NCBI GenBank assembly: GCA_020720365.1 | Contig: DYOU01000001.1 | Span: 32,459 to 96,458, forward strand | Reading direction: 5' to 3' | Length of the DNA: 64,000 bases | Origin: Candidatus Elulimicrobium sp. | GTDB taxonomy: Bacteria > Omnitrophota > Gorgyraeia > Zapsychrales > Fredricksoniimonadaceae | Part shown: positions 1-54,662 of the stretch, one piece after another | How positions within the stretch are numbered: the first letter of the stretch is position 1 | How the letters are laid out: each line of letters opens with the position of its first letter | Position numbers and translations under genes: made by a program | Notes under the pieces: model-generated | What the model was told of the DNA's origin: nothing | What the model saw: only the letters and a program-made list of their open reading frames with translations | Database searches by the model: none

Positions 1-1159
1 AAAGGGTTTTACGATAGGCGCGTGTTCCGGACAGCAATATGCCTCCTGCCAGAATGAACCAGAAGCCATTCCATTTAGGATGTTTCAGTTCAATCCCCAA
101 ATAGATAAAAGTTGCATATAGTCTTTCCATCAGAATGGGTTGAGTCGCGGTTGTCAGCCCATTGATGAAGGTACGGCTGTCAGGAGCCCATAATGTTTGG
201 AAAAAGAGTGTAGGCAGAAAGGATAAGATGAGCGCGAATAGTGGAACCTTCCAGGAGGAGGCGACTATTTTTCTGAGTGAAGGAGATCGCAGGATCGCCG
301 CTGCGCACATGAGGGCGGTGATCAGGGAGAGTACAAGTCCTTCACTTTTTGTAAAGCTCATGAAACCAAGGCTCAAGAGCAGGATGGATAAGTAGCTGTT
401 TGATCGGCGTTCAATAAAAAGCTTGAATGCCAGCAAGGCACTCAGCAGCCATGTTCCTGTTAGCAGGTCGCTATATTGGCTGGAGGCGAGGATGACCATG
501 AACATGACCGATAGTGCCCATAGCGGAGCGAGCAAGGAGGAAAGAGTCTTGTTTATTTCCTTGAGTCCGAAGAACAGGATCCCGGACATCAGCAGGGAGA
601 TCTGGCAGGAGGTGGCCATGGGGGTCGCCTGGGAGGGTTCTCCGGTAAAACACCATGCCCAGACATTCACGAGAGGGAGCAGGAAAGGGTAGCTGATATT
701 GGAACGCCAGAGCGCGGGGTCCATCATACCGCGCCAGCCGTCGCCTCCGAGGAAAAGAAATTTGGCCTTCAGGTTCCAGCATGACCAGGCATCCCACCCG
801 CCATGCGGATAAGCGGCGGCATAAAGAAAGACGGGGATATGAAAAAGAATGAGAAAAAAGAGCCCGATCAAATCTTGCTTGTTCCAGGCATTCAGGGTGA
901 AGGGGAACGGGATCCCTTTATGTTTTGCCAGGAAGAACAGAAAGAGTGTTACGGTACAATTCAGTGCAATGACATAACCGGGAAGGAGTTGGTTGAAGAA
1001 TAGAAAGCTGGTGAATGTCAGCAGAGCTGTTGTTCCCATGCCGATGAGGGCTCCGAGAAAAAGGAGTAGCGGCATGCGCGGGCGTTCAGAGGGCGGAAAG
1101 ATCGCGATGAGAAGAAAGAAGCCCTGCAGCAGCGATAGCACAAGGGGGAAGATCATCAT
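1..1159 (-). CDS. Polytopic integral membrane protein, 3' end runs off window (GT-C / O-antigen-ligase-like fold suspected); N-terminus MMIFPLVLSLLQGFFLL...
   Basis: Manual reverse-complement translation from ATG (rc of 1157-1159) gives >380 codons with no stop and a strongly hydrophobic multi-TM sequence. The frame stays consistent through position 2-4. The ORF track omits it because it lacks an in-window stop. ATGA overlap with upstream ORF 1156-1578. Confidence 0.6.
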   Translation of the reverse strand, partial: MMIFPLVLSLLQGFFLLIAIFPPSERPRMPLLLFLGALIGMGTTALLTFTSFLFFNQLLPGYVIALNCTVTLFLFFLAKHKGIPFPFTLNAWNKQDLIGLFFLILFHIPVFLYAAAYPHGGWDAWSCWNLKAKFLFLGGDGWRGMMDPALWRSNISYPFLLPLVNVWAWCFTGEPSQATPMATSCQISLLMSGILFFGLKEINKTLSSLLAPLWALSVMFMVILASSQYSDLLTGTWLLSALLAFKLFIERRSNSYLSILLLSLGFMSFTKSEGLVLSLITALMCAAAILRSPSLRKIVASSWKVPLFALILSFLPTLFFQTLWAPDSRTFINGLTTATQPILMERLYATFIYLGIELKHPKWNGFWFILAGGILLSGTRAYRKTL

Positions 1160-3351: not shown

Positions 3352-4368
3352 GTGATTTCTGTTGGAGTTATCGGGTGCGGTCATTGGGGGCCCAATCATA
3401 TTCGTGTCTTTTCTCAGCTGCCGGATTCACAATGCTTGATGTGTGCGGATGTCGATGAAGCGCGTCTTAAGGCTGTTAAATCTCTTTTTCCATCGGTTGA
3501 ATTTACCAGGGATCATCAGGATATCCTGGCGAATCCAGCGATTGATGCGGTCTGTATTGCAGCTCCGACACGGTTCCATTATCAGCTTACCAGGGAAGCA
3601 TTGGCTTCCGGTAAGCATGTATTATGCGAAAAGCCGTTGGCGATGCTGCCTGAGGAGTGCCTGGAATTGAAGGCTCTGGCGGATAAGGCGGGAAAAGTTC
3701 TGATGGTGGGGCATGTCTTTACGTTTAATTCGGGTATTCGCTGGGTCAAGGCTTATATTGATTCCGGCGAAATGGGGAAGATCTTTTATGCTCATTCCGA
3801 GCGCACGAATCTGGGGCCGTTCCGTTATGATGTGAACGCTCTTTGGGATCTGGCGCCTCATGATATTTCCATCTTTGATTATCTTCTGGGGTGCGGGGCG
3901 GTGAGCGCCTCGGCGCGCGGGTTAAAATGCCTGGGGAATACACTGGAAGACCTTGCTTTTGCTACTCTGGATTATCCGGATTCCAGGCTGGTGAATATTC
4001 ACGTCAGCTGGGCGGATCCGCGTAAAGTCCGTCAGATCACGATTGTTGGAGAAAAGAAAATGCTGGTGTGGGATGACCTTGATCCTCTCGGAGCTGTGCG
4101 CGTGTATGACAAATATGTAGAGCGTACGACCAAGTACTATGAGAGTTACGGCGAGTTTCAGCTGCTTTCGCGTGAAGGCTCGATCACGATCCCCAAGATC
4201 AATCTGGGAGAACCCCTTAAGAGCCAGGGGCAGTATTTTATTGAATGTGTCAAGAATGGCGTTGCGCCGGAGATCGCCGATGCGTTAAAGGCCGCTTCTG
4301 TTGTGCGCACCTTGGCGGCTGTGCAGAAATCCATGGATAACGGTGGAGCGTCAGTCAGGATCGTATGA
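3352..4368 (+). CDS. Gfo/Idh/MocA family NAD(P)-dependent oxidoreductase (WbpB-like UDP-sugar 3-dehydrogenase type)
   Basis: N-terminal Rossmann motif VGVIGCGHWGPNHIR, EKPLA motif, ~338 aa. Gene context with hexapeptide acetyltransferase and GT2. Confidence 0.75.
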   Translation: MISVGVIGCGHWGPNHIRVFSQLPDSQCLMCADVDEARLKAVKSLFPSVEFTRDHQDILANPAIDAVCIAAPTRFHYQLTREALASGKHVLCEKPLAMLPEECLELKALADKAGKVLMVGHVFTFNSGIRWVKAYIDSGEMGKIFYAHSERTNLGPFRYDVNALWDLAPHDISIFDYLLGCGAVSASARGLKCLGNTLEDLAFATLDYPDSRLVNIHVSWADPRKVRQITIVGEKKMLVWDDLDPLGAVRVYDKYVERTTKYYESYGEFQLLSREGSITIPKINLGEPLKSQGQYFIECVKNGVAPEIADALKAASVVRTLAAVQKSMDNGGASVRIV

Positions 4369-15675: not shown

Positions 15676-17628
15676 ATGATCAGCCTAACTAATGTATCAA
15701 AGAATTTTGATGAACGTATGCTTATGGATAATGTCACCTTGAGCATTTTTCGCAATGAACGCATCGGCCTTACCGGACCCAATGGAGCCGGTAAAACGAC
15801 AATGTTCCATTTGATCCTGGGGGATATTCATCCGACCGACGGTAGTGTGATGATCCAGAAGGGGATAAAGATCGGGTACCTGCCGCAAGAGGCTCATTTT
15901 GATTCAGACCGAACGGTCATGGAAGAGGTCACTTCAGGGGATGAAGAGATCCGTAAGCTCCTGGATGAAAAGCATCGGATGGAAGAAGGCGGCCTTTGCG
16001 GAGAAGTGCGTTATGGGGATGTATTGGAAAAGTTGGAGCATTTGGGGATTTATGACCTGGAGCATAAGGCCGAAAAGATCCTGACGGGACTTGGCTTCAA
16101 GGAATTTGAGTTTACCAAGCCGATCGTTCAGCTTTCCGGCGGGTGGCAAATGCGCACCTTGTTGGCCAAGTTACTAACGTATAATTACGATCTGCTTTTG
16201 CTCGACGAGCCGACGAATTACCTGGATCTTGCCGCTACTTTATGGCTTAAAGAATATTTAGGCCGGTATCCGGGTTCTTTTGTAATGATCTCGCACGATA
16301 AGGTCTTTCTGAATGATGTTACCAATTATACGATCGTCCTTGAGAGCGGCAAGATGGTGAAGGTGAAAGGTAATTATGATACGTATGAGGCTCAGAAGGA
16401 TATCGAGTATCGCACGCTTGAAAAACGGATGAAGGTCATTGATAAGAAAAAAGACCAGCTGGAGCGGTTCACGAATCGGTTTCATGCGCAGCCGAACCGC
16501 GCTTCCGCCGTGCAGAACAAGATGAAAATGCTGGACAAGCTGGAAGATGAAAGTGTAGACCTTCCGCGGGCAAGGATGAGTATCAAGGAATTCTCTTTTC
16601 CGGAGACGACTGAAAGTGGCTATACCGTTATTAATCTGGAGCATGTCAAAAAATCGTATCCGGATAAAACGATCTATACAGACCTGAATTTTGAGATCAC
16701 CAAAGGGCAGAAAGTTTGCCTTGTTGGCCCGAACGGTGCTGGTAAGTCAACATTGCTCAAGATATTGGCGGACGTTATTCCCTTTGATGGCGGTACGCGC
16801 CGCCTGGGGCATGGGGTTAAGATGGGATACTTTTCCCAGACCAGGCTGGATGTTCTGAATCCGAACCGGTCGGCATTGGAAGAGTTGCTGAGCGCTGTCG
16901 GCGGAAGTTTCCCACAGACACAGGCGCGCAACTTGCTGGGTATGTTCAATTATCATGGAGATGATGTGTTCAAGCCTGTAGCCGTCCTTTCCGGCGGTGA
17001 AAAGAGCCGCCTGATCCTGGCTAAATTGTTGATTAACCCACCGAACCTGATCCTTCTGGATGAGCCGACAACGCATTTAGATGTGGCGGGGGTTGAAGCG
17101 CTAGTGAAAGCATTGAAGAATTATAAAGGGACGTTATGTTTTATCAGTCACGATCTTTTTTTTCTGCGAGAGATCGCTAATCATGTCGTTGAAGTTGACG
17201 GCGGAGATATTCGCCAGTATCCTGGCGGCCTTGATTATTATTTGGACAAGAAACAAGGGCGCGCCTCCGAAGCGGCGGAAGAGGCCAGGAAAGCGGCGGC
17301 ACGCCAGGCCTATGAAGCGCAGAAAAAACCCAAGAGCGATCCTCATGAGCCGGAGCATTTACGCGCGGCCCGTCAGAAGCATGAACTGGCGCTTAAACGG
17401 ATCCAGGAGATCAAAAATCGGATCAAGATGATTGAAAAAGAAGAGAAAGACCTTGAGACGGAGACTTATGTAAAATCCCGCGTAATGAGCACTTCGTTCA
17501 GCGGCCGGGGCAGGGAAGATGTTGTGGAATGCGGCCGTCGTTTGAAAGAGATCCAGCTAAAGTTGCGCGAGCTGGGTACGGAACGCAGCCGGCTGATCGA
17601 GGAGCGCGACAGGATCAATCAGAATTAA
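15676..17628 (+). CDS. ABC-F family ATPase (tandem ABC domains, no TMD; Uup/EttA-like) with C-terminal coiled coil
   Basis: Two Walker A (GPNGAGKT, GPNGAGKS) and two signature LSGG motifs (LSGGWQ, LSGGEKSR). 650 aa. Confidence 0.85.
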   Translation: MISLTNVSKNFDERMLMDNVTLSIFRNERIGLTGPNGAGKTTMFHLILGDIHPTDGSVMIQKGIKIGYLPQEAHFDSDRTVMEEVTSGDEEIRKLLDEKHRMEEGGLCGEVRYGDVLEKLEHLGIYDLEHKAEKILTGLGFKEFEFTKPIVQLSGGWQMRTLLAKLLTYNYDLLLLDEPTNYLDLAATLWLKEYLGRYPGSFVMISHDKVFLNDVTNYTIVLESGKMVKVKGNYDTYEAQKDIEYRTLEKRMKVIDKKKDQLERFTNRFHAQPNRASAVQNKMKMLDKLEDESVDLPRARMSIKEFSFPETTESGYTVINLEHVKKSYPDKTIYTDLNFEITKGQKVCLVGPNGAGKSTLLKILADVIPFDGGTRRLGHGVKMGYFSQTRLDVLNPNRSALEELLSAVGGSFPQTQARNLLGMFNYHGDDVFKPVAVLSGGEKSRLILAKLLINPPNLILLDEPTTHLDVAGVEALVKALKNYKGTLCFISHDLFFLREIANHVVEVDGGDIRQYPGGLDYYLDKKQGRASEAAEEARKAAARQAYEAQKKPKSDPHEPEHLRAARQKHELALKRIQEIKNRIKMIEKEEKDLETETYVKSRVMSTSFSGRGREDVVECGRRLKEIQLKLRELGTERSRLIEERDRINQN

Positions 17629-17642
17629 AAGGGCGCGGAGCC

Positions 17643-17900
17643 ATGAAACTTAAACTGGACCTTCATCGTGTTTTTTCCAATGGCAGCGCTATTGAGTCGG
17701 CCTTGCATGAAATTATGGGCGAAGCCATTGAGAAGCGTGCGGAATATGTGGAAATTATTCCTGGTAAAGGCAGTGGGCAGTTAAAGAAATCTGTGCTGCG
17801 GTTTCTGGAGAAAGAATATAAAGGCCGTTATACGCGCATTGAGAAGGATGACAAGAATTTCGGGCGGCTGTTTGTGCATTTTAACTGGAACAAGCTTTAA
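17643..17900 (+). CDS. Smr-domain protein (small MutS-related nuclease domain)
   Basis: LDLHRV...VEIIPGKGSGQLKKSVLRFL matches Smr core. ATG at 17643 is in-frame within the longer ORF-track ORF. Confidence 0.65.
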   Translation: MKLKLDLHRVFSNGSAIESALHEIMGEAIEKRAEYVEIIPGKGSGQLKKSVLRFLEKEYKGRYTRIEKDDKNFGRLFVHFNWNKL

Positions 17901-17904
17901 AATG

Positions 17905-17935
17905 TAAAAAACCCTTCTTGCGAAGGGTTTTTTAG
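17905..17935. terminator. Bidirectional rho-independent terminator (AAAAAACCCTTC-ttgc-GAAGGGTTTTTT)
   Basis: Perfect 8-bp GC-containing stem with A-run upstream and T-run downstream. Sits between convergent Smr (+) and micro-peptide (-) genes. Confidence 0.65.
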
Positions 17936-17952
17936 TAAAGAATAAAAGATGG

Positions 17953-18039
17953 TTACTTCTTCTTTGCAACTTTTTTAACAGCCTTCTTTGGAGCTTTTTT
18001 TGAAGCTTTGGTGGAACATTTTGATGTGCAGCAAGCCAT
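17953..18039 (-). CDS. Micro-ORF encoding 28-aa Lys/Ala-rich peptide MACCTSKCSTKASKKAPKKAVKKVAKKK
   Basis: Strong SD (GAAAGGAGAAAACATC-ATG), followed by the bidirectional terminator. Paralogous to the 18198-18266 micro-ORF. The ORF track lists a longer 70-aa version, but the SD favours the internal ATG. Confidence 0.5.
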   Translation of the reverse strand: MACCTSKCSTKASKKAPKKAVKKVAKKK

Positions 18040-18043
18040 GATG

Positions 18044-18079
18044 TTTTCTCCTTTCATGATGTTGAATATCTGAAATAAT
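18044..18079 (-). terminator. Rho-independent terminator downstream of second micro-peptide gene (AGCCCCCT-loop-AGAGGGCT + T7 on minus strand)
   Basis: Hairpin read from sequence 18049-18073 with poly-T on the minus-strand transcript. Confidence 0.5.
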
Positions 18080-18197
18080 ACTATCATGGGCAAGAAGTAT
18101 GGTAAAAGGAAAAAGTGATTTTCTGATGCAGAGGGTATAAATAAAAAAAGCCCTCTAAATGACATAGGGGGCTTCTTTTATACCTGAAGAAGATCTT

Positions 18198-18266
18198 TTA
18201 CTTCTTTTTTGCAACTTTCTTGACAGGCTTCTTGACAGCTTTTTTTACGGGTTTCTTAACAGCCAT
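18198..18266 (-). CDS. Micro-ORF encoding 22-aa Lys-rich peptide MAVKKPVKKAVKKPVKKVAKKK (VKKP/AKK repeats)
   Basis: SD AAAGGAGAAATCAAT-ATG, own terminator downstream, AT-rich promoter region upstream. Below the ORF-track size cutoff. Confidence 0.5.
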   Translation of the reverse strand: MAVKKPVKKAVKKPVKKVAKKK

Positions 18267-18404
18267 ATTGATTTCTCCTTTCTTGAGGTTTTTTGTAACC
18301 TGTAATTATATTAACACGCGATAAAATAGATTCAAAAAATATTTCATTTTATTTAAGAAGAATTTAAATAAAAATATTTTTTTCTCGACGGGGGGAAAAA
18401 CATA

Positions 18405-19511
18405 GTGATTCAACCGCTTTCTGTGTATGTCCATATTCCTTTTTGTAAAAAGAAATGTCCCTATTGTTCGTTCGCAGTGGCTGTTGGCCAAGGGCATTAT
18501 GAGAAAGATTATTTAGCCGCGATCGATCGTGAGGCCATGTCGTATGGGGCTCGGGTTTCTACAGTTTATATTGGCGGCGGCACCCCGTCATGTTTGTCTC
18601 AGGAAGGGGTGGAGTATTTGTTCGCAAGTATCTTTCAGCGGTTTACAGTAGTTGAGAATGTTGAAATTTCTTTTGAAGTGAATCCTGACAGCATAGATCG
18701 CAAGAAGGCCGCGTTGTTAAAGAAAGCCGGAGTGAATCGTATCAGCCTCGGCCTGCAATCTCTGGACGATGATGCGTTGGTATTATTGGGGCGGACACAC
18801 TCTGCTGATGATGCGTTGCGGGCATTGGGGATTTTACGTGAAGCCGGTTTTGATAATATTAATCTTGATTTCATGTATGGTTATCCCGGGCAGAGTCGAG
18901 AGGGCGTAAGGAAAGATCTCTATCGTGTTTTGGCGCTGGGCTGTGAGCATTTGTCATTGTACGCGCTTAACATTGAAGAGCGCAGCCTTTTTTTTGCCCG
19001 GCGCGTGGAGGTAGATAATGACGCGCAAGGTGAGCTTTATGGAGAAGTTTGCGGGCAGGCAGAGGCTGCCGGTGTTTATCAATATGAGGTGAGTAATTTT
19101 TCCCGCCCGGGCTATGAGTCCCGTCATAATTCAAACTACTGGCAGGGAGGCGAATATGCGGGCCTGGGCCTGTCGGCTCATTCGCATATAGCCGGAGAGC
19201 GGTTCTGGAACGCCGCGGCATTGCCGGAGTATTTACAGCTAATGAAAGTGTCTGGAACGGCCAGGGTCGGCGGAGAGCGGCTTTCAGGCCCCGAGAAACT
19301 TGTTGAAGAATTCCTTTTCGCCCTTAGAATGAATAAAGGCTGCGACCTGGGAGCGCTGGAAATAAGGTTTGGTTCTGAAATGCCGATGGAGAAGAAAGAA
19401 ACCCTGGAAAGTTTGATCGAAATGGGCTTGCTTGAGGAAGAGGGCATGCTGATCCGGGCGACACCTCGGGGACGCTTGCTTCTCGATGAGATCGCGGCTA
19501 GGATTATTTAG
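18405..19511 (+). CDS. hemW: Radical SAM heme chaperone HemW (HemN-like, oxygen-independent coproporphyrinogen-III oxidase family)
   Basis: VYVHIPFCKKKCPYCSFA (CxxxCxxC), GGGTPS; 368 aa, GTG start. Confidence 0.8.
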   Translation: MIQPLSVYVHIPFCKKKCPYCSFAVAVGQGHYEKDYLAAIDREAMSYGARVSTVYIGGGTPSCLSQEGVEYLFASIFQRFTVVENVEISFEVNPDSIDRKKAALLKKAGVNRISLGLQSLDDDALVLLGRTHSADDALRALGILREAGFDNINLDFMYGYPGQSREGVRKDLYRVLALGCEHLSLYALNIEERSLFFARRVEVDNDAQGELYGEVCGQAEAAGVYQYEVSNFSRPGYESRHNSNYWQGGEYAGLGLSAHSHIAGERFWNAAALPEYLQLMKVSGTARVGGERLSGPEKLVEEFLFALRMNKGCDLGALEIRFGSEMPMEKKETLESLIEMGLLEEEGMLIRATPRGRLLLDEIAARII

Positions 19512-19519
19512 GAGAGGGC

Positions 19520-20575
19520 ATGAAACTTTTAGGTAAGATCCTGATTGTGCTAATCGTGTTATGCGTGATAGCCGCTGCCGCCTTGCGCTTGGCCGCGGCG
19601 GACCCCCGGCTGATGAGCGCGGCTTTACGCTGGGCGGCATCCAGGTATTGTAAATCCGTTCAAGTGCAGGATATAACGATTGCTTCCCTGAAATACGCGT
19701 TTCCATCGTCCTGGGTATTGAGCGATGTGCGCGTGCGGCTGGTCCTGAACGCGCAGGTGCTGGAGATCCGCGCGGCGGGGGCGGATTTTCGGGATTTGCG
19801 GCAATTGTTAATCATCGGGGAAAAAGCTGCCGTTGATCTGAAAGGAGTAAGTGTTTTGTACGGAAAATTGAATGCCGGGCCGTGCGCGTTGAGGGCGGTC
19901 GTTACTCGTTCATCTTCCGGCATAAGCGCTGAAGGAGTTGTGTCCGTGGTGGAAATTTCATGGGACCAGTGGAAGGCGCGAGCGGTGAGCGCGGTGTGGG
20001 CGGGAGATACAGCTTCGCTGGTCTTGCATGAAGGCTTGGCGGATGTCTATGGCGGAAAGTTATCTGTTGTTGGAAAAGTGATGTTCAGAGATTCGCTGGA
20101 ATATGAGGCGGCTGTTTCATTGAAGGGAGGGGATGCGGTTGAGCTTGAACGGGCGCTGGGCCGGGATGCGCGGGAATTTTCCGGAAGGTTATCAGGGTAT
20201 GGAAAAGTGCATGGCCTGGGAGATCGTATTGATGTTCTGGATGCGGCGCTGGATATGCCGGCGGGAGGGGAAGTCAGCGCGGCATTTCTGTCCCTGATCT
20301 CTTCGTATCTTCCGTCTTCAGCCCAGAAGAAGAAGTTGGACGCTTTGATTGATTCAGGCGGAAGGCTTGCAGTTGAGGTTTTTTCGTTTACAATAAAGAA
20401 TGATGCGCCAGATCGTTTGAGCGGAAAGATTGGCCTCAAAAGCCGCGAAGCCAATATTGAATTGAATATAGCGCATGAGATCAGGGTGGATGCCAGGGTA
20501 GACTCCCTGCTTCGGACGTGGCAGCTGTTTATGGATTCATGGCAGAAAGTTCCCAAACCAGTTAAGGGCTCATAA
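19520..20575 (+). CDS. Membrane-anchored protein, short YdbH-like (AsmA-like/DUF) partner of ynbE/ydbL
   Basis: N-terminal TM KILIVLIVLCVIAAAAL. Position immediately upstream of ynbE- and ydbL-like genes mirrors the E. coli ydbH-ynbE-ydbL operon. 351 aa, much shorter than E. coli YdbH. Confidence 0.45.
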   Translation: MKLLGKILIVLIVLCVIAAAALRLAAADPRLMSAALRWAASRYCKSVQVQDITIASLKYAFPSSWVLSDVRVRLVLNAQVLEIRAAGADFRDLRQLLIIGEKAAVDLKGVSVLYGKLNAGPCALRAVVTRSSSGISAEGVVSVVEISWDQWKARAVSAVWAGDTASLVLHEGLADVYGGKLSVVGKVMFRDSLEYEAAVSLKGGDAVELERALGRDAREFSGRLSGYGKVHGLGDRIDVLDAALDMPAGGEVSAAFLSLISSYLPSSAQKKKLDALIDSGGRLAVEVFSFTIKNDAPDRLSGKIGLKSREANIELNIAHEIRVDARVDSLLRTWQLFMDSWQKVPKPVKGS

Positions 20576-20613
20576 TGGGCCCGGGGTTATGCGGGGATAG
20601 ATAAGGAGATCGA

Positions 20614-20784
20614 ATGATACAATTGCTGGCGGGATTCATGGTGGTATTGTTTTGCTCGGGATGTACGGTCAAGGCTGTGGGCGATCCCAATCGCCCGATC
20701 ACGATCAATGCGCATATTACGATCGATATCAAGGGGCTTGAAAAGACAGCTTCGAGCATGGAAGATTTTGTGAGCGGCAGTTAA
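20614..20784 (+). CDS. ynbE: YnbE-family small lipoprotein (56 aa)
   Basis: SD AAGGAGA 5 nt upstream of ATG; MIQLLAGFMVVLFCSGCTVKAVGDPNRPITINAHITIDIKG resembles YnbE (signal-Cys then PITINxxVxIEH). Not in the ORF track (<60 aa). Confidence 0.6.
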   Translation: MIQLLAGFMVVLFCSGCTVKAVGDPNRPITINAHITIDIKGLEKTASSMEDFVSGS

Positions 20785-20807
20785 TAACTTTTATGAAAGG
20801 TTGAGTT

Positions 20808-21203
20808 ATGAAAAAGATATGGACAGGTTGTTTGATGGCGGTATTGGTTTCATCGGTGGCATTGGCCCAGGGTGCGTATGACATCAAGGAAATGACGCCG
20901 GCAGTCAAGTCGGCGCTGGAAAGCCGTAAGGCCCGCTTTACTGAATTGAAAGCGCTGAAAGCACAGGGGTCCGTGGGCGAGAATAATCGTGGATATGTTC
21001 AGGCCTTGAGCGACGCGGCTGAAGTTAAAGCGTTGGTTAAAGCCGAGAATGTGGACCGCAAGTTTGTTTATGAAGCGATCATCGAGCAGAACGGGCTGGA
21101 TGCCGGTGTTCTGGAGACTGTTGAAAAAGTATTTGCCCGTGTTCAGCGGGAAAAAGCCGGCGGCGGTGAAAAAGTTCAGGATGAGGCCGGTGGCTGGAAT
21201 TAA
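20808..21203 (+). CDS. ydbL: YdbL-family periplasmic protein (DUF1318)
   Basis: Signal peptide; LKAQGSVGENNRGYVQAL matches the YdbL signature (AKAQGLVGEQ.NGYL). Confidence 0.65.
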   Translation: MKKIWTGCLMAVLVSSVALAQGAYDIKEMTPAVKSALESRKARFTELKALKAQGSVGENNRGYVQALSDAAEVKALVKAENVDRKFVYEAIIEQNGLDAGVLETVEKVFARVQREKAGGGEKVQDEAGGWN

Positions 21204-22279
21204 TTTTTACGGTATCTGCCTGCGATCGTTGTGGACTGGTCAAAGAATTTAAATAATGCTTCTCCGACCAGTTCTTTGTACGGCGGAGTTATTTTGAGTG
21301 TCGCCAGGATCTTCTTGGCTTTGGTGATACGGGTATCCACTGCTTCCAGAGCGTAGTGCAGGCTTCCGGCCTTGATCACCAGTGCTTTTATGGCTTCCTG
21401 GTCGGTCAGGTTCTTTTTGGTTTTCAGGAATATCCGGGTCATGGCCGTCAGGTCCCGGCCTTTCAGACCGGCGTAGGCATGCACGATCAAAAGCGTTTTC
21501 TTTTGTTCATCCAGGTCGCTCAGGATCGATTTTCCAATCGCCTCTTCTGTTTCAAATAAACCGATAATATCATCCTGGATCTGGAAAGCCTGGCCAATGC
21601 AAAGGCCGAAGGCGGCAAGTTTAGGGATTTCGCTCTTAGGGGCGCCGGCCAGGATAGCGCCTGTGACCAGCGGGCAATCGAAGGTGTAGCGAGCTGTCTT
21701 GAGTGAATAATTCAGAAAGACGTCTTCTTCTTTAATATTCTTTAGTTCGTCTACGCCGTGAACAGTATCGACGAATTCGCCCATGGCCGTGAAAGCGGCG
21801 GTTTGAATAAAATATTTCAGCGCGGCTTCTTTACGCTGGGGATCTTCTTTGATCGACAGGAAGGCGTCGATCGCAAGGGCGTAGACAATATCGCCGGCGA
21901 TAATGGCAAGATCGACCCCCAATTTATTCGGGTTAGCGCACGGGACGGTCGCATTGAGGACGCGGTGCATGGTCGGTTTACCGCGCCGCAGGTCAGCGCA
22001 GTCAATAATATCGTCGTGGATCAGCATAAAATTATGCAGGAACTCGATACAAGTAGAGGCGTTATACAGTGAGCGAGAGGGTTTTTTCCCTTTGGGTGAA
22101 TAGCCCAGATATCCCAGAAGCAGCAGGATCGGGCGGATGCGTTTGCCTTCGCGCAAGGAGAATTCCCGGATACTTTTGAATAGCAGCGGATCGACCAGAT
22201 GCAGTTTGTAATCTTTAGCAACATGGTCAAGAAAAAGGCCGATGCTGATATCAATTTCTTTCTTGAAGGTCGTAAGCAT
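21200..22279 (-). CDS. Polyprenyl diphosphate synthase (trans-isoprenyl diphosphate synthase; IspA/IspB/GGPPS family)
   Basis: First and second Asp-rich motifs LIHDDIID and QIQDDIIG; 359 aa. Convergent 4-nt overlap with ydbL. Confidence 0.85.
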   Translation of the reverse strand: MLTTFKKEIDISIGLFLDHVAKDYKLHLVDPLLFKSIREFSLREGKRIRPILLLLGYLGYSPKGKKPSRSLYNASTCIEFLHNFMLIHDDIIDCADLRRGKPTMHRVLNATVPCANPNKLGVDLAIIAGDIVYALAIDAFLSIKEDPQRKEAALKYFIQTAAFTAMGEFVDTVHGVDELKNIKEEDVFLNYSLKTARYTFDCPLVTGAILAGAPKSEIPKLAAFGLCIGQAFQIQDDIIGLFETEEAIGKSILSDLDEQKKTLLIVHAYAGLKGRDLTAMTRIFLKTKKNLTDQEAIKALVIKAGSLHYALEAVDTRITKAKKILATLKITPPYKELVGEALFKFFDQSTTIAGRYRKN

Positions 22280-22405
22280 AAAAGTCCTTGAGGTTAGGGA
22301 TTATTTTCTTGCTTCATAACATAGCGGAATCCTGGAATATGTGATAGGATAATTTTCAAGTTTGAAAAATTCATGGATGCGACCTGTTAACCTTGGAGGG
22401 GTGAG

Positions 22406-23002
22406 ATGAAGAAATGTTCGTTATTTATCCTGTTTTTATTGATGTCTGCGGCGGCGAATGCCGAGACGGTTTATTTGAAGAGCGGCTCAACGGCGACGGG
22501 AAAGATCGTTGATAAAAGAGAGTCGAGTATTGTCCTGGATATCGGCGGGGCAACAGTGACGTATTATAATGATGAGATCGACCGTATCGATGAAGGGGGT
22601 GCGCCTGCCGCGGCTGTAGCTGAGTCTCCCGTTAGTGCGCCGGCTGGTTCCATTAGTACTATGAAGCGCGATCTTATCCTGAAGTTTATTGATGTGTTTG
22701 GAACGCATTCGAGCATGAAAGCCAATTTTGAGCAGATGATGGCTTCGATCGGCGTTGAGGAGGCGGATAAACTTCGCAGCGCATTCGACGTAGACGAGAT
22801 CATTGAGCTTCTCGTTCCTTTATATGATCGTTATATGTCAGAGAGCGATCTGCGCGCGTATATTGCTTTTTACGGGTCTGCCGATGGCAGGAAGCTGGTT
22901 GAGGCGATCCCGCAGATCATGCGCGGCAGCGTTGAGATCAGCGCCAAGTATTTTGAAGAGCGTATGCCTGAGGAATTCAAGAAGGGCGCGGCAGCCAAGT
23001 AA
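22406..23002 (+). CDS. Secreted DUF2059-like protein
   Basis: Cleavable signal peptide (LFILFLLMSAAANA). C-terminal region (LVPLYDRYMSESDLRAYIAFYGSADGRKLVEAIPQIM) resembles the DUF2059 core. Confidence 0.5.
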   Translation: MKKCSLFILFLLMSAAANAETVYLKSGSTATGKIVDKRESSIVLDIGGATVTYYNDEIDRIDEGGAPAAAVAESPVSAPAGSISTMKRDLILKFIDVFGTHSSMKANFEQMMASIGVEEADKLRSAFDVDEIIELLVPLYDRYMSESDLRAYIAFYGSADGRKLVEAIPQIMRGSVEISAKYFEERMPEEFKKGAAAK

Positions 23003-23143
23003 GCTTTTCAAAGAGCTATAAATTATTTAATTTCAACTACTTGCATCTTTACAGTTAAATTGTATTTGATTTTGTTCATCTCCTTTGTTATATTAAGCGG
23101 CGATTTTTTTGTGCCCTTAATTTAATAATAAGGAGATTTTTTT

Positions 23144-24439
23144 ATGATTGATAGGTACACTCTTTCCAAGATGGGTCGTATTTGGTCTGAGCAGCGGAAG
23201 CTTGAGATCATGCTGCAGATCGAAGTCCTTGCCTGTGAGGCCATGTGTCAGCTTGGCAAGATCCCTAAACCAGCCCTGGAGAAGATCAAAAAAAATGCTA
23301 AATTCGACCTCGATGAGGTGAAGCGGATAGAAGAGCGGACCAAGCACGATGTTGTCGCGTTCATTCACAATGTCGGTGAGAATATCGGAGCGGAAGCGCA
23401 GTACCTTCATATGGGGATGACATCTTCTGATCTGATCGACACATCCATATCTGTTCAATGCGTGGAAGCGTCTGAGATCCTGATCGCGGATATGAAAAAA
23501 CTTCAGGCGATCTTGAAAGCTAAAGCCAAGAAGTACAAGGATACGGTTTGTATTGCCCGTACCCACGGTGTGCATGCCGAGCCAATGACGTTCGGATTGA
23601 AATTGGCGCTCTGGTATGACGAAGTTGGCCGTAATCTCAAGCGCCTGGAAGCGGCTGCGGAAGATATGCGCGTGGGTAAACTTTCCGGCGCTGTTGGTAC
23701 GTATGCGAATATTGATCCGTTTGTAGAGGAGTATGTATGCCAGAAGTTGAATTTAAGGCCCGCCAATATCGCGACTCAGGTCATACAGCGCGATCATCAT
23801 GCGAATTTTCTTAACGTCATTGCGCTGGTAGGCGCTTCGCTTAGCAAATTTGCTACCGAGATCCGTTTGCTTCAGAAGACAGAGGTGCTTGAGGTTGAAG
23901 AGCCTTTCTTTAAAGGCCAGATCGGCTCATCGGCGATGCCGCATAAGCGTAACCCGGTGACCTGTGAACGTATTTGCGGGTTGGCGCGTATCTTGAAAGC
24001 TAATGCGTCGATCGGACTGGATAATATCGCTCTGTGGCATGAACGCGATATCAGCCATAGTTCTGCCGAGCGTATTATTCTCCCGGATAGCACCATTGCC
24101 CTGGATTATATGCTCAACAAATTCATTCCTCTGGTTGACGGCCTGCTGGTTTATCCGAAGAATATGATCAATTCGCTGCAGTTGACGCGCGGACTGATCT
24201 ATTCTCAGCGCTGCCTTCTGGAATTAATGAAGAAAGGCTTGGCACGCAGTGAGGCCTATGAGATTATTCAAAGCGCGGCTATGCAGGTTTGGCAGGAGAC
24301 GTCGGATTTTCGAGATGTCCTTAATCGTGACCGTCGTGTGCGTAAGTATTTGAGCAAAGATGAGGTAGATGCGTGTTTTGATATTAAATATTATATTAAA
24401 CACCGTGATTATGTTTTCAAACGCGTCGGGATCAAATAA
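23144..24439 (+). CDS. purB: Adenylosuccinate lyase
   Basis: MIDRYTLSKMGRIWSE..., fumarate-lyase signature GSSAMPHKRNP; 431 aa. Confidence 0.9.
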   Translation: MIDRYTLSKMGRIWSEQRKLEIMLQIEVLACEAMCQLGKIPKPALEKIKKNAKFDLDEVKRIEERTKHDVVAFIHNVGENIGAEAQYLHMGMTSSDLIDTSISVQCVEASEILIADMKKLQAILKAKAKKYKDTVCIARTHGVHAEPMTFGLKLALWYDEVGRNLKRLEAAAEDMRVGKLSGAVGTYANIDPFVEEYVCQKLNLRPANIATQVIQRDHHANFLNVIALVGASLSKFATEIRLLQKTEVLEVEEPFFKGQIGSSAMPHKRNPVTCERICGLARILKANASIGLDNIALWHERDISHSSAERIILPDSTIALDYMLNKFIPLVDGLLVYPKNMINSLQLTRGLIYSQRCLLELMKKGLARSEAYEIIQSAAMQVWQETSDFRDVLNRDRRVRKYLSKDEVDACFDIKYYIKHRDYVFKRVGIK

Positions 24440-52642: not shown

Positions 52643-53572
52643 GTGAGCAGGGACACTCTCGTTAGTGTAGTCATTCCTACCTGCGGCCGAAATGATTATT
52701 ATATTTCTTGTATTCAGTCGCTTCTTCAGCAGGCGCATTCCTTCTTAGATATTATTGTGGTGGAGAATTCAGGGGATCTGGCTCTTGAGGGGAAGGCCCT
52801 GGTGCTTTGCCCGGCGGCAAGGGTTGTTCAGGCTCCGCAGGGATCATCGTATTGCGATCTAATGAACACAGGGATCGGGTTAAGCCGTGGTGAGCATATT
52901 CTTTGCCTGAATGATGATGTAACGCTTGATCCGGCGTTTCTTGAGAATGCGTTGAAAGGTTTTACGCTGGATCCTCGCATAGGGATGGTCACAGGCAAGG
53001 TGTTAAGGCAGGATCGAACGACGCTGGATACGACAGGTTTGTTCCTGGGTATTTGCAGGACAGCACAAGAAAGAGGGTATGGGCAGGCGGACCGCGGGCA
53101 ATTCCAGAGGGAGGGGTTTATTTTTGGCGTGTGTGGGGCGGCTGCTTTTTATCGTAAGACGATGCTTGATGAGATCAGGGAAGGTCAAGATTGGTTTGAT
53201 CCTCGTTACCGGTTCTTTTATGAAGACCTTGATATTGCATGGAGAGCGCAGAGAAGAGGTTGGAACGCTTACTACATACCTGATGCGGTGGCGTATCATG
53301 TGCGCGGAGGTTCTATCCGTGGCAACGGAGGGCAGGGGAAGCCATTTGCCCGGAAATATTTAAGTGATGAAATGCATGCAGCCTTGATCCGGAACCGATA
53401 CAGGACAATCATGAAGAATGAAACGTTGGGCGGGCTTATCCTTCATTTGATCCCGATCATCCTGTATGAGCTTTGGGCATGGGCCTATATTATTTTCTTC
53501 AGGCCGAATGTTGTGAGGGTATTTGTTGCGGAGCTTTGTTCAGTAAAAGGCCTAGCAGAATACACCAGATAA
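52643..53572 (+). CDS. Family 2 glycosyltransferase (rhamnosyl/galactosyl-transferase-like GT2)
   Basis: VSVVIPTCGRNDY, LNDDV (DxD) motifs; 309 aa. Confidence 0.75.
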   Translation: MSRDTLVSVVIPTCGRNDYYISCIQSLLQQAHSFLDIIVVENSGDLALEGKALVLCPAARVVQAPQGSSYCDLMNTGIGLSRGEHILCLNDDVTLDPAFLENALKGFTLDPRIGMVTGKVLRQDRTTLDTTGLFLGICRTAQERGYGQADRGQFQREGFIFGVCGAAAFYRKTMLDEIREGQDWFDPRYRFFYEDLDIAWRAQRRGWNAYYIPDAVAYHVRGGSIRGNGGQGKPFARKYLSDEMHAALIRNRYRTIMKNETLGGLILHLIPIILYELWAWAYIIFFRPNVVRVFVAELCSVKGLAEYTR

Positions 53573-54662
53573 AACATGTTTCCGGAAAGAAGAATGTAAA
53601 GTCGATGCAGTTATGGAGAAGAAAGGCCAGTGATCCGCATAGCAGCCCTGCCGTCACAGGTTTGTCCGCGGCTGTTTCCAGGGCACGAAATCCTGAGCGG
53701 ATAAGTGTTGTTATCAGAAATATAAAAGAAGCGAAACCCGCCAGGCCTGTTTCTGCCCATAGCTGAAGAAAGTTGTTATGCGCATAGCGGGCGTTGATCA
53801 GGTCAAGATGGCCGAGCCCGATCCCGAACAAGAGATGTTCCTTGATGATCAGGGCTGTCTGCAGCCAATAACTTAAACGCATTCGCATGGAGTAGTCTGG
53901 CTGGAAATGTTGGAATTGGGATGATGTTCGGAGGGCAAAGATGGCCGCTGCCAGAGTGAATAGCCCGATCAGCAGTACGGTTATAAGGAGCGTAATGGTG
54001 CTGTCTTTTTCTTTCTTTTGTTTGAACGCGAAGAAAATAGCCGCGGCAGCCAGTAAACAGACGATCGCTCCGATAGATTTGGAGAGCAGAAGGGCGAAAA
54101 ACAGCGGCAGGACGACCCAGGCATTGTCTTTCAGTGTAAGGGCAAGAGGAATGATCATAATGAGGTATCCCGCGAGTGTATTGGGAGTAATAAAAGGTGT
54201 AAACACCCTTTGCTGGGCAATGAAGTTACGGGCAACCGGATCAACGGTCTTTGTTTCATTCAGATAGTTTTTAATATTCTGGAATCCGCTGAAAAACTGA
54301 TTAAGATCCAGGAAGCTGATGAAGACCGCCGTCAGAATAAGGGTTATGATGACGGTGTTCTTTTGATCTTCTGCCAAAGACCGGCAAACGAAGAACAGCA
54401 GAATGCCATTCAGATATTGCAACAGGGTTAAAGCAGAGAGCAGCTTGTTGTGAGAGGGGATTAATGAGAATAAAAGAGCGGCTATGAATAACAGGACTGC
54501 CGTTGTCAATCTTCGATCGTCCCATAAAGGTGTTTCCTGAATGAATATCCAGCTGGCCAGAAAAGTGGCAAGCGCGATAGAATGCATCAGGTTGAACTCA
54601 GGGAAGGCTGTTGAGCAGATGAACGGACGGATAATAATCAGAAGTAATAGCAGAATAAACAT
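53499..54662 (-). CDS. O-antigen ligase/Wzy-like polytopic membrane protein (Wzy_C-type)
   Basis: ~10 hydrophobic helices; pattern with conserved R/H-containing periplasmic loop region (YAHNNFLQLWAETG). 3' end overlaps the convergent GT2 gene. Confidence 0.55.
   Translation of the reverse strand: MFILLLLLIIIRPFICSTAFPEFNLMHSIALATFLASWIFIQETPLWDDRRLTTAVLLFIAALLFSLIPSHNKLLSALTLLQYLNGILLFFVCRSLAEDQKNTVIITLILTAVFISFLDLNQFFSGFQNIKNYLNETKTVDPVARNFIAQQRVFTPFITPNTLAGYLIMIIPLALTLKDNAWVVLPLFFALLLSKSIGAIVCLLAAAAIFFAFKQKKEKDSTITLLITVLLIGLFTLAAAIFALRTSSQFQHFQPDYSMRMRLSYWLQTALIIKEHLLFGIGLGHLDLINARYAHNNFLQLWAETGLAGFASFIFLITTLIRSGFRALETAADKPVTAGLLCGSLAFLLHNCIDFTFFFPETCFIWCILLGLLLNKAPQQIPSQHSA

Follow-up and report, generated by a model that had tools for sequence, protein, structure and literature searches.

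Two lysine-rich micro-genes upstream of hemW

The window considered here is a stretch of 64,000 nucleotides (nt) from Candidatus Elulimicrobium sp., a member of the Omnitrophota. Between its gene for a small Smr-domain protein and hemW, which encodes a heme chaperone, there are two very short open reading frames (ORFs) on the minus strand, hereafter called micro-genes A and B. Comparison with related loci shows A and B to be paralogous, each organised as a complete predicted transcription unit, and under purifying selection in an Omnitrophota clade, where they are divergent from hemW. The elements of the two units are as follows (aa, amino acids; pI, isoelectric point).

18198..18266, minus strand: micro-gene A, the Cys-free type; product MAVKKPVKKAVKKPVKKVAKKK, 22 aa, net charge +11, pI 11.0
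18308..18335, minus strand: predicted promoter of A; -35 TTGAAT at 18330-18335, 16-nt spacer, extended -10 TGTTAATAT at 18308-18316, AT-rich stretch upstream
18267..18281, minus strand: Shine-Dalgarno region of A, AAAGGAGAAATCAAT; duplex -13.4 kcal/mol
18143..18179, minus strand: predicted intrinsic terminator of A, a hairpin followed by U7; hairpin-competent on the plus strand too
17953..18039, minus strand: micro-gene B, the Cys3 type; product MACCTSKCSTKASKKAPKKAVKKVAKKK, 28 aa, net charge +11, pI 10.3
18078..18105, minus strand: predicted promoter of B; weak -35-like TTACCA, 16-nt spacer, extended -10 TGATAGTAT at 18078-18086
18040..18054, minus strand: Shine-Dalgarno region of B, AAAGGAGAAAACATC; duplex -12.7 kcal/mol
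17906..17933, both strands: predicted bidirectional intrinsic terminator, a 13-bp stem between A6 and T6; ends B (minus) and the convergent Smr gene (plus)

Both ORFs are present exactly as a preliminary description of this DNA had transcribed them, and their products do share the ending VKKVAKKK that it had pointed out. In the 64-kb window, no other ORF of 12-80 aa combines a Lys content of 39% or more with a preceding Shine-Dalgarno (SD) sequence. The SD motif GAAAGGAGA is found in both genes and is kept in their orthologs. It had been placed 6-7 nt before the ATG, which is roughly right: in A as well as in B, the 10-mer AAAGGAGAAA ends 5 nt upstream of the ATG, and its GGAG core ends 8 nt upstream. 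When calculated with an assumed, generic bacterial anti-SD tail, the SD:anti-SD duplexes of both are stronger than that of any long ORF in the window (49 ORFs, with a median of -6.3 and a best value of -11.6 kcal/mol).

Sigma-70-type promoters with an extended -10 element are plausible for both genes from their sequences. Downstream, a GC-rich hairpin followed by a U-tract is found 15-35 nt 3′ of each ORF. The terminator of A folds with -18.3 kcal/mol (z -3.6) and that of B with -16.9 kcal/mol (z -6.2), and none of 200 shuffled sequences folds as well. Thus, the strong terminators that had been ascribed to the two genes stand as far as strength is concerned, although the idea that each gene has one for itself does not hold for B, which has its terminator in common with the Smr gene. 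This terminator is considered bidirectional because an A-run and a T-run flank 17906-17933, 6 nt past the stop codon of the convergent Smr gene. Neither a tRNA nor an Rfam family at gathering score was found at the locus, and in the whole window no Rfam family reached that score. A permissive Rfam scan of 17800-18500 returned only sub-threshold matches, which are centred on the terminator hairpins.

Conservation across hemW loci

The hemW loci of relatives at graded distance were fetched and scanned for small Lys-rich ORFs. The sample is small, with 14 distinct loci that have enough upstream sequence; it is anchored on hemW, and copies elsewhere in the genomes would escape it. In one more locus, L096, the flank is too short to judge. 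In relatives whose HemW is 44-65% identical to that of the window, both types of peptide turn up again, encoded on the other strand than hemW and within about 100-700 nt upstream of this gene. The A type, which has no Cys, is found in 11 of the 14 loci, and the B type, which has three, in 7 of the 14. Beyond the window, there are A orthologs in ten loci (16-21 aa; 47 aa in L097) and B orthologs in six (25-27 aa).

A type, L083: MAVKKAAKKAVKKVAKKKK
A type, L085: MAVKKAAAKKPVKKVAKKKKK
A type, L086/L087: MAVKKAAAKKPAKKVAKKKK
A type, L088: MAATKKAAKKAPAKKVAKKKK
A type, L089: MATKKKAAKKTKKVAKKKR
A type, L090: MATKKKAVKKVAKKKK
A type, L091: MAVKKAKKKAPVKKAKKKK
A type, L179: MAKKAKKKAPVKKGKKKKK
A type, L178: MAAVKKATKKKAAKKTAKKK
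A type, L097, 523-666, minus strand: 47-aa expanded form, beginning MAVKRKKAAKKATRKKAAKKATRKK
B type, L083: MVCCSTKKCAKPASKKAPAKKVAKKKK
B type, L085: MVCCSSKKCAKPASKKAPAKKAAKKK
B type, L086/L087: MTCCSSKKCAKPASKKAPAKKVAKKKK
B type, L090: MSCCSTKKCTKKASKKAPAKKVAKKK
B type, L091: MKCCSTKKCTKPASKKAPAKKAKKK
B type, L179: MPCCSMKKCTKKASKKAPAKKAKKKK

The order of the two units is not fixed. The hemW-proximal unit is B in L083, L085, and L086, and it is A in the window, L090, L091, and L179; where the order differs, each unit travels with its own promoter and terminator. Consequently, each of the two cassettes has undergone its own rearrangement, or its own loss and regain. The 47-aa form of L097, which contains Arg, repeats KKAAKKATR-like units about four times, and this shows that the family can grow through internal repeat duplication. 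Longer members such as this one exceed the cut-offs of gene callers, yet HMMER-based searches miss them.

Evidence for translated genes

The substitutions among orthologs follow the reading frame. In a codon alignment of six B genes, the variable columns at codon positions 1, 2, and 3 number 5, 6, and 23 of 26, and pairwise comparison yields 157 synonymous versus 60 nonsynonymous codon differences. The corresponding alignment of eight A genes has 7, 7, and 19 variable columns of 20, with 162 synonymous versus 97 nonsynonymous differences. Changes in length are always multiples of three (3-18 nt between A of the window and its short orthologs), and the 18 ORFs, 11 of A type and seven of B type, are all intact and have a GGAG-type SD. 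In addition, 15 columns of B are invariant across the six aligned sequences, among them M1, C3, C4, C8, and ASKKAP; L179, the seventh B ortholog, likewise keeps the three Cys and the ASKKAP pattern.

The predicted expression signals are also maintained. A GGAG-type SD and a hairpin-plus-U terminator accompany each of the 16 units analysed, with stems that differ in sequence while their pairing is kept, and both units of L179 have an SD and a terminator-like hairpin as well. For A, ten out of ten units, all from different genomes, have an extended -10 (TGnTAnnnT) at a distance of 40-53 nt before the ATG, together with a -35-like hexamer at 16-17 nt. The evidence for a promoter is weaker for B than for A: an extended -10 is present at a similar distance in four of six units and, in a fifth (L085), further upstream. 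Control hemW loci of other phyla (660 kb and 626 kb, about 1.29 Mb) contain nothing similar, their only two SD-preceded small Lys-rich ORFs being unlike either type, and across 179 loci (about 1.5 Mb) the C-terminal motif KK[VA]AKKK is confined to these micro-genes.

Third-position substitutions, in-frame insertions and deletions, the conserved syntenic ORFs with their signals, and the empty control loci all argue for protein-coding genes, and on this comparative evidence A and B are very probably real and translated. The preliminary description had proposed two separate, independently expressed micro-genes for Lys/Ala-rich peptides; it had also called for a search of relatives and had counted non-conservation of the ORFs as evidence against them. 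In these relatives, the ORFs, SD, and terminators are kept, changes are mostly synonymous, and indels are in frame. This conservation and the promoter, SD, and terminator of each unit bear the proposal out. In practical terms, real micro-genes can be found by looking, next to a syntenic anchor, for an SD and a terminator together with conservation that follows the codon period.

Annotation and neighbouring genes

The micro-genes escape standard ORF cut-offs, as had been anticipated: in every record examined, the region is either empty or covered by out-of-frame ORFs. For instance, the annotation of a metagenome-assembled genome (MAG; GCA_974330425.1, contig CDCMAX010000008.1) has no gene between Smr and hemW. 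A Joint Genome Institute (JGI) gene call, P0001 (17953-18165, minus strand), is a 70-aa ORF that extends B upstream through the SD of B itself, and an SD in such a position argues that the downstream ATG is the true start of B. Other out-of-frame or over-extended calls lie over the micro-genes in L085 (3586-3795, minus strand) and L090 (3734-3967, minus strand). Such overlapping calls, P0001 included, are annotation artefacts that stem from the minimum-length rule. Genes that are invisible to annotation, as they are of low complexity and fall below a 30-codon cut-off, nevertheless have the strongest predicted expression signals of the window.

Three genes flank the locus on the plus strand.

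15676-17628, plus strand: ABC-F ATPase, a soluble translation factor
17643-17900, plus strand: small Smr-domain protein, convergent with B
18405-19511, plus strand: HemW, the radical-SAM heme chaperone; TIGR00539 equivalog, 279.7 bits against a cut-off of 205.4

HemW has the Radical_SAM and HemN_C domains only, and a SPASM or other peptide-recognition domain is absent from it. The homologs of this HemW are labelled Candidatus Omnitrophota or Omnitrophica at source, and the closest are 64-65% identical. Translation-related genes flank the locus in the window (those for ABC-F, Smr, a pseudouridine synthase, and a SpoU methylase). The upstream neighbours differ in relatives, where giant ORFs, a P-type ATPase, or TatC are found.

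Composition of the peptides and database searches

The A types consist of 50% Lys, 25% Ala, and 10% Val, and the B types of 41% Lys, 18% Ala, 11% Cys, and 10% Ser. Asp, Glu, Leu, Ile, and aromatic residues do not occur in any member, and there is almost no Arg. The sequences are built from three to five period-4 xxKK units, and their middle is of low complexity with insertions and deletions. Despite these and the substitutions, the net charge lies between +9 and +11 in all 16 short peptides; it therefore seems that selection maintains charge and length. By contrast, amphipathicity is not conserved: among orthologs, the helical hydrophobic moment takes values between 0.01 and 0.44. The peptides have a mean hydrophobicity of -0.35 to -0.71, versus +0.17 to -0.31 for four reference antimicrobial peptides. 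The peptides are expected to be disordered or without a fold. In nearly all members, a small residue follows the initiator Met, so that this Met is probably cleaved off; without it, A and B have computed average masses of 2331.0 and 2851.5 Da, and with it, of 2462.2 and 2982.7 Da.

Searches of protein collections returned very little. Pfam gave no family at E-values up to 1-10 for seven peptides including the 47-aa form, with the HC2, Hc1, and linker-histone models among those searched; NCBIfam gave no match for any member tested, ribosomal models included, and no chain in the PDB was matched at E-values up to 10 by peptide B or by an A-type profile. A protein homology search with A and B concatenated found only P0001, the mis-called ORF of the window itself, and one with the 47-aa form of L097 found nothing. 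These empty searches are taken to reflect compositional-bias correction and databases that lack ORFs below 30 aa, rather than absence.

Nucleotide collections added few loci. In a HemW search of genome contigs, the best relative (L003, 50% identity) has neither the micro-genes nor the upstream synteny, and the other 79 loci from this search served as negative controls. A metagenome scan with a DNA pattern for the B type gave no match, though the pattern recovers all nine B-type loci fetched by then. The reason is either that the contigs concerned are missing from the collection or that it does not return patterns with variable gaps; the JGI origin of P0001 suggests that such sequence exists in JGI data. 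Scanning metagenomes with a HemW alignment gave, among the matches listed, two useful loci, L096 and L097. In viral contigs no B type was detected, and four matches to the A-type start pattern belong to an unrelated protein of 88-103 aa. Finally, the Omnitrophota genomics papers searched, including PMC10066038, mention neither histones nor lysine-rich or small proteins, and further literature searches brought up no description of such peptides.

A proposed nucleic-acid-binding role

From their composition and context, A and B may be free-standing polycations, comparable to histone H1 tails or protamines, that bind nucleic acid. This is the reading favoured here, and its probability may be put at about 45%. 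In broader terms, the products are probably abundant polycations that bind DNA or RNA. The preliminary description had offered several alternatives, namely a nucleoid protein like an H1 tail or a ribosome-associated, antimicrobial-like, or RNA-binding micro-protein; among these, the evidence from the sequences favours a polyanion-binding role and disfavours an antimicrobial one. High expression is predicted because the SD pairings are the strongest in the window and are combined with extended -10 elements and an AT-rich upstream region.

In the mechanism envisaged, the peptides, which lack an export signal, would be abundant, unfolded polycations of the cytoplasm, composed of about 50% Lys together with Ala, Val, Pro, Ser, or Thr. 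They would bind electrostatically to the phosphate backbone of nucleic acid, most likely that of chromosomal DNA, and would thereby neutralise charge and compact the chromosome in cells about 0.2 µm across. In B, the polycationic tail is joined to an invariant N-terminal head, C-C-x2-K(K)-C, rich in Ser, Thr, and Lys. This Cys3 head might conceivably bind a metal ion or form thiol cross-links. If tails were linked in such a way, a monovalent ligand would become a bridging, switchable condenser, similar to what zinc or disulfide bridges do in mammalian protamines.

DNA is preferred as the ligand for several reasons. The Lys/Ala/Pro/Val composition and the xxKK periodicity are those of histone-H1-type tails, and the number of repeats drifts and can expand, as in L097, which is also reported for chlamydial Hc2 (PMC2848022). 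Moreover, small basic DNA-binding proteins occur in small cells with condensed nucleoids; for instance, ScvA and Hq1 are enriched in the small, condensed-nucleoid form of Coxiella (PMC4766238). Lastly, most Omnitrophota are ultra-small, with cells of about 0.2 µm (PMC10066038).

Several observations weigh against this reading. The composition fits DNA, rRNA, mRNA, or polyphosphate alike, and RNA, ribosomes, and polyphosphate are equally accessible ligands. H1-like Lys/Ala/Pro tails have been reported to act on polyphosphate granules, in the case of AlgP (PMC9239181), and on RNA, in that of PhaF (PMC12818456). A defined binding site, for instance a pocket in the ribosome, could equally account for lengths that stay nearly constant over deep divergence (19-22 and 25-28 aa). 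Furthermore, neither type is found upstream of hemW in L176, L177, and L003, and B is missing in the A-carrying loci L088, L089, L178, and L097. This patchy presence indicates that neither A nor B is universally required, at least at the hemW locus.

A bolder version of the nucleic-acid-binding reading is rather doubtful. In it, A and B would be the smallest bacterial chromatin proteins known, forming a system of about 20 aa and fixed charge (+10 to +11) for bulk compaction, with a metal- or redox-switchable Cys3 paralog that evolved independently of protamine. If the peptides did turn out to be polycations of the nucleoid or the ribosome, they would have implications for the packing and neutralisation of nucleic acids in ultra-small cells, and they would constitute a new minimal class of bacterial chromatin or ribosome-associated proteins, conserved among deeply divergent members of an uncultivated phylum whose bacteria are ultra-small. 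The peptides are accessible by chemical synthesis, and binding to DNA, RNA, polyphosphate, or metals can be tested without cultivation.

Comparison with known polycationic proteins

Hc2 (HctB) and H1-like tails, such as the C-terminal domain of eukaryotic H1 and that of actinobacterial HupB, are likewise rich in Lys, Ala, Pro, and Val, repetitive, and devoid of acidic residues. The Cys3 head of B is not known from H1-like sequences. The Omnitrophota belong to the same PVC (Planctomycetes-Verrucomicrobia-Chlamydiae) superphylum as the Chlamydiota, and, as in the micro-peptides, the repeat number of Hc2 varies between lineages. The documented function of Hc2 is to bind and condense DNA. The sizes are very different: Hc2 has 165-237 aa (Hc1/Hc2 about 125-237, with many Lys-rich pentamer repeats), while the micro-peptides have 16-28 aa (47 in L097), approximately one tail module. 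Eukaryote-type linker histone H1 has, besides a Lys-rich tail, a globular winged-helix domain, for which there is no room in 22-28 aa and no Pfam match. Thus, A and B cannot be counted among the Hc1/Hc2, BpH1, or AlgP families: neither Pfam nor NCBIfam returns a match, Hc2 and AlgP are longer by an order of magnitude, and the micro-peptides carry no accompanying domain. Instead, A and B belong to a gene family that has escaped annotation, includes a new Cys-headed paralog, and in the loci sampled is confined to part of the Omnitrophota.

The nearest precedent in size and proposed role is ScvA of Coxiella burnetii, which is developmentally regulated. It has about 30 aa and is rich in Arg and Gln, as opposed to Lys and Ala in the micro-peptides, and a sequence relationship to them is not expected. 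The protamines of vertebrate sperm are likewise short polycations that neutralise and compact DNA, an analogy that involves no homology; in contrast to the micro-peptides, they are Arg-rich, eukaryotic, and about 50 aa long. In mammalian P1, Cys residues, including Cys-Cys pairs, form cross-links through disulfide or zinc bridges, in analogy to the head and tail of B, and the Cys3 head can be likened to these pairs as well as to a fragment of metallothionein.

Alternative explanations

A and B could also be lineage-specific ribosomal or rRNA-bound micro-proteins seated in defined pockets, with a Cys/Cys-free pair loosely resembling zinc-dependent and zinc-free ribosomal paralogs. This is unlikely, although it has arguments on its side. 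Tiny basic ribosomal proteins include bTHX of Thermus and eL41; they are Arg-rich, non-repetitive, and conserved in sequence, unlike the micro-peptides. The latter also differ from site-specific ribosomal peptides, as these are generally known, in their near lack of Arg, their lack of aromatic residues, their low-complexity indels, and the expansion to 47 aa. On the other hand, a size of 19-28 aa and extreme basicity match bS22 and bL37 of mycobacteria, which are likewise tiny (24-33 aa) and extremely basic, and which are highly expressed and were long missed by annotation (PMC10081302). The very strong predicted expression signals and the rather constant length and termini over deep divergence would agree with a ribosomal role, and the pairing of Cys-containing with Cys-free paralogs recalls that of mycobacterial ribosomal proteins (PMC6094098). 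Nevertheless, the peptides match no PDB chain, although many bacterial ribosome structures are included there, and no Pfam or NCBIfam ribosomal model. B is missing in four loci that have A, and the translation-related neighbours seen in the window, which would fit such a role, are absent from the loci of relatives. In addition, a Zur- or Fur-like operator, which the Cys/Cys-free pairing had suggested, is not supported, as the promoters showed no consistent dyad symmetry above shuffled controls; thus, no dyad-symmetric operator such as a Zur box speaks for zinc-dependent paralogs.

Quite unlikely, too, is that the partners are polyanions other than DNA, namely polyphosphate granules or mRNA, with the disordered Lys/Ala/Pro segment acting as a scaffold, chaperone, or translation modulator. 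The peptides are of the same composition class as the tails of AlgP and PhaF of Pseudomonas, likewise polycationic low-complexity segments of Lys, Ala, and Pro, which bind polyphosphate granules, DNA, and RNA (PMC9239181, PMC12818456, PMC11894788). Conservation of charge rather than of sequence would suit any polyanion. However, AlgP and PhaF are far larger, multi-domain proteins with KPAA/AAKP repeats, and these are absent from the alignments of the micro-genes, whose products have period-4 xxKK units and no further domain. No gene for a polyphosphate kinase or granule protein adjoins the locus either. In silico, the polyphosphate or RNA readings and the DNA reading are indistinguishable.

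The short, strongly cationic sequences, together with the host-dependent lifestyle proposed for the Omnitrophota (PMC10066038), might suggest leaderless antimicrobial or predation peptides directed at host or prey membranes. This explanation is very improbable. The peptides have no Leu, Ile, Phe, or Trp, their hydrophobicity falls below that of the reference antimicrobial peptides, and an amphipathic helix is not conserved. Moreover, there is no signal peptide, no conserved gene for transport, immunity, or processing nearby, and the locus is a stable housekeeping neighbourhood.

It is even harder to believe that peptide B is the precursor of a ribosomally synthesised and post-translationally modified peptide, with modified Cys, Ser, or Thr, or a Cys-ligand partner of the adjacent HemW. 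Divergent adjacency to hemW is kept in every peptide-carrying locus, and B has three invariant Cys beside Ser and Thr. Yet the neighbour is a housekeeping HemW equivalog without a SPASM or peptide-recognition domain, and neither a leader/core architecture nor a protease or exporter was found. The Cys-free A is the commoner neighbour of hemW, B is gone from four loci in which hemW stays, and which of the two units lies closer to hemW depends on the lineage.

Finally, small RNAs or Lys-codon leader-peptide attenuators with incidental or purely regulatory ORFs can practically be dismissed: the short predicted promoter-to-terminator transcripts, Lys-codon runs superficially like those of amino-acid leader peptides, and weak Rfam matches to leader and small-RNA families are outweighed by the third-codon-position pattern and conserved amino-acid sequence, by the lack of any minus-strand gene downstream to attenuate (Smr, after B, is convergent, and B, after A, has its own promoter), and by scores that are far below the Rfam gathering scores and come from terminator hairpins.

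Other features of the locus and the window

For the Smr gene, the longest ORF begins at 17529 (17529-17900, plus strand), which would mean a 100-nt overlap with the ABC-F gene; in the MAG annotation and in orthologs, the start is at 17643, which gives an 85-86-aa form (MKLKLDLH...). In the more distant relatives, another small protein is convergent with the A-type gene, at about 100-429 (plus strand) in L097 and at 3354-3623 (plus strand) in L178, and in both loci it has a bidirectional terminator in common with the micro-gene. Its counterpart in L003 (3670-3987, plus strand) is directly upstream of hemW. The motif HLWIESQK[AV]GY occurs in the proteins of L003 and L097, and all three, including that of L178, have a Lys-rich C-terminal tail.

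Upstream of the micro-genes, a very long ORF is found in L083 (1-3349), L086/L087 (1-3384), L091 (1-3395), and L085 (36-3182). These ORFs span 1048 to more than 2500 aa, run off the locus, and have weak Pfam matches or none, which is consistent with the giant genes reported for the Omnitrophota. On the other side, a string of genes is conserved in the window (18405-24439) and in L083, L085-L091, and L179: hemW, an unknown protein of 337-351 aa without a Pfam match, an unknown protein of 55-63 aa, DUF1318, a polyprenyl synthase on the opposite strand, DUF2059, and purB. Both unknown proteins 3′ of hemW appear to be lineage-specific.

Over the window as a whole (1-64000), GC skew is uniformly extreme, at +0.17 to +0.30 in every 2-kb bin, and cumulative skew rises monotonically. 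Nearly all long ORFs are on the plus strand. The few minus-strand exceptions are the micro-genes, the polyprenyl synthase gene (21200-22279), and a Wzy_C O-antigen-ligase-like gene (53499-54662). G+C content falls to 0.41-0.44 between 54000 and 62000, compared with about 0.50 elsewhere. This segment contains genes related to surface polysaccharide, namely those for the Wzy_C O-antigen ligase, GT4 and GT family-4 glycosyltransferases, an amine-oxidase-like flavoprotein, and an ABC-2 permease with its ATPase, and it may be a laterally acquired glycan cluster.

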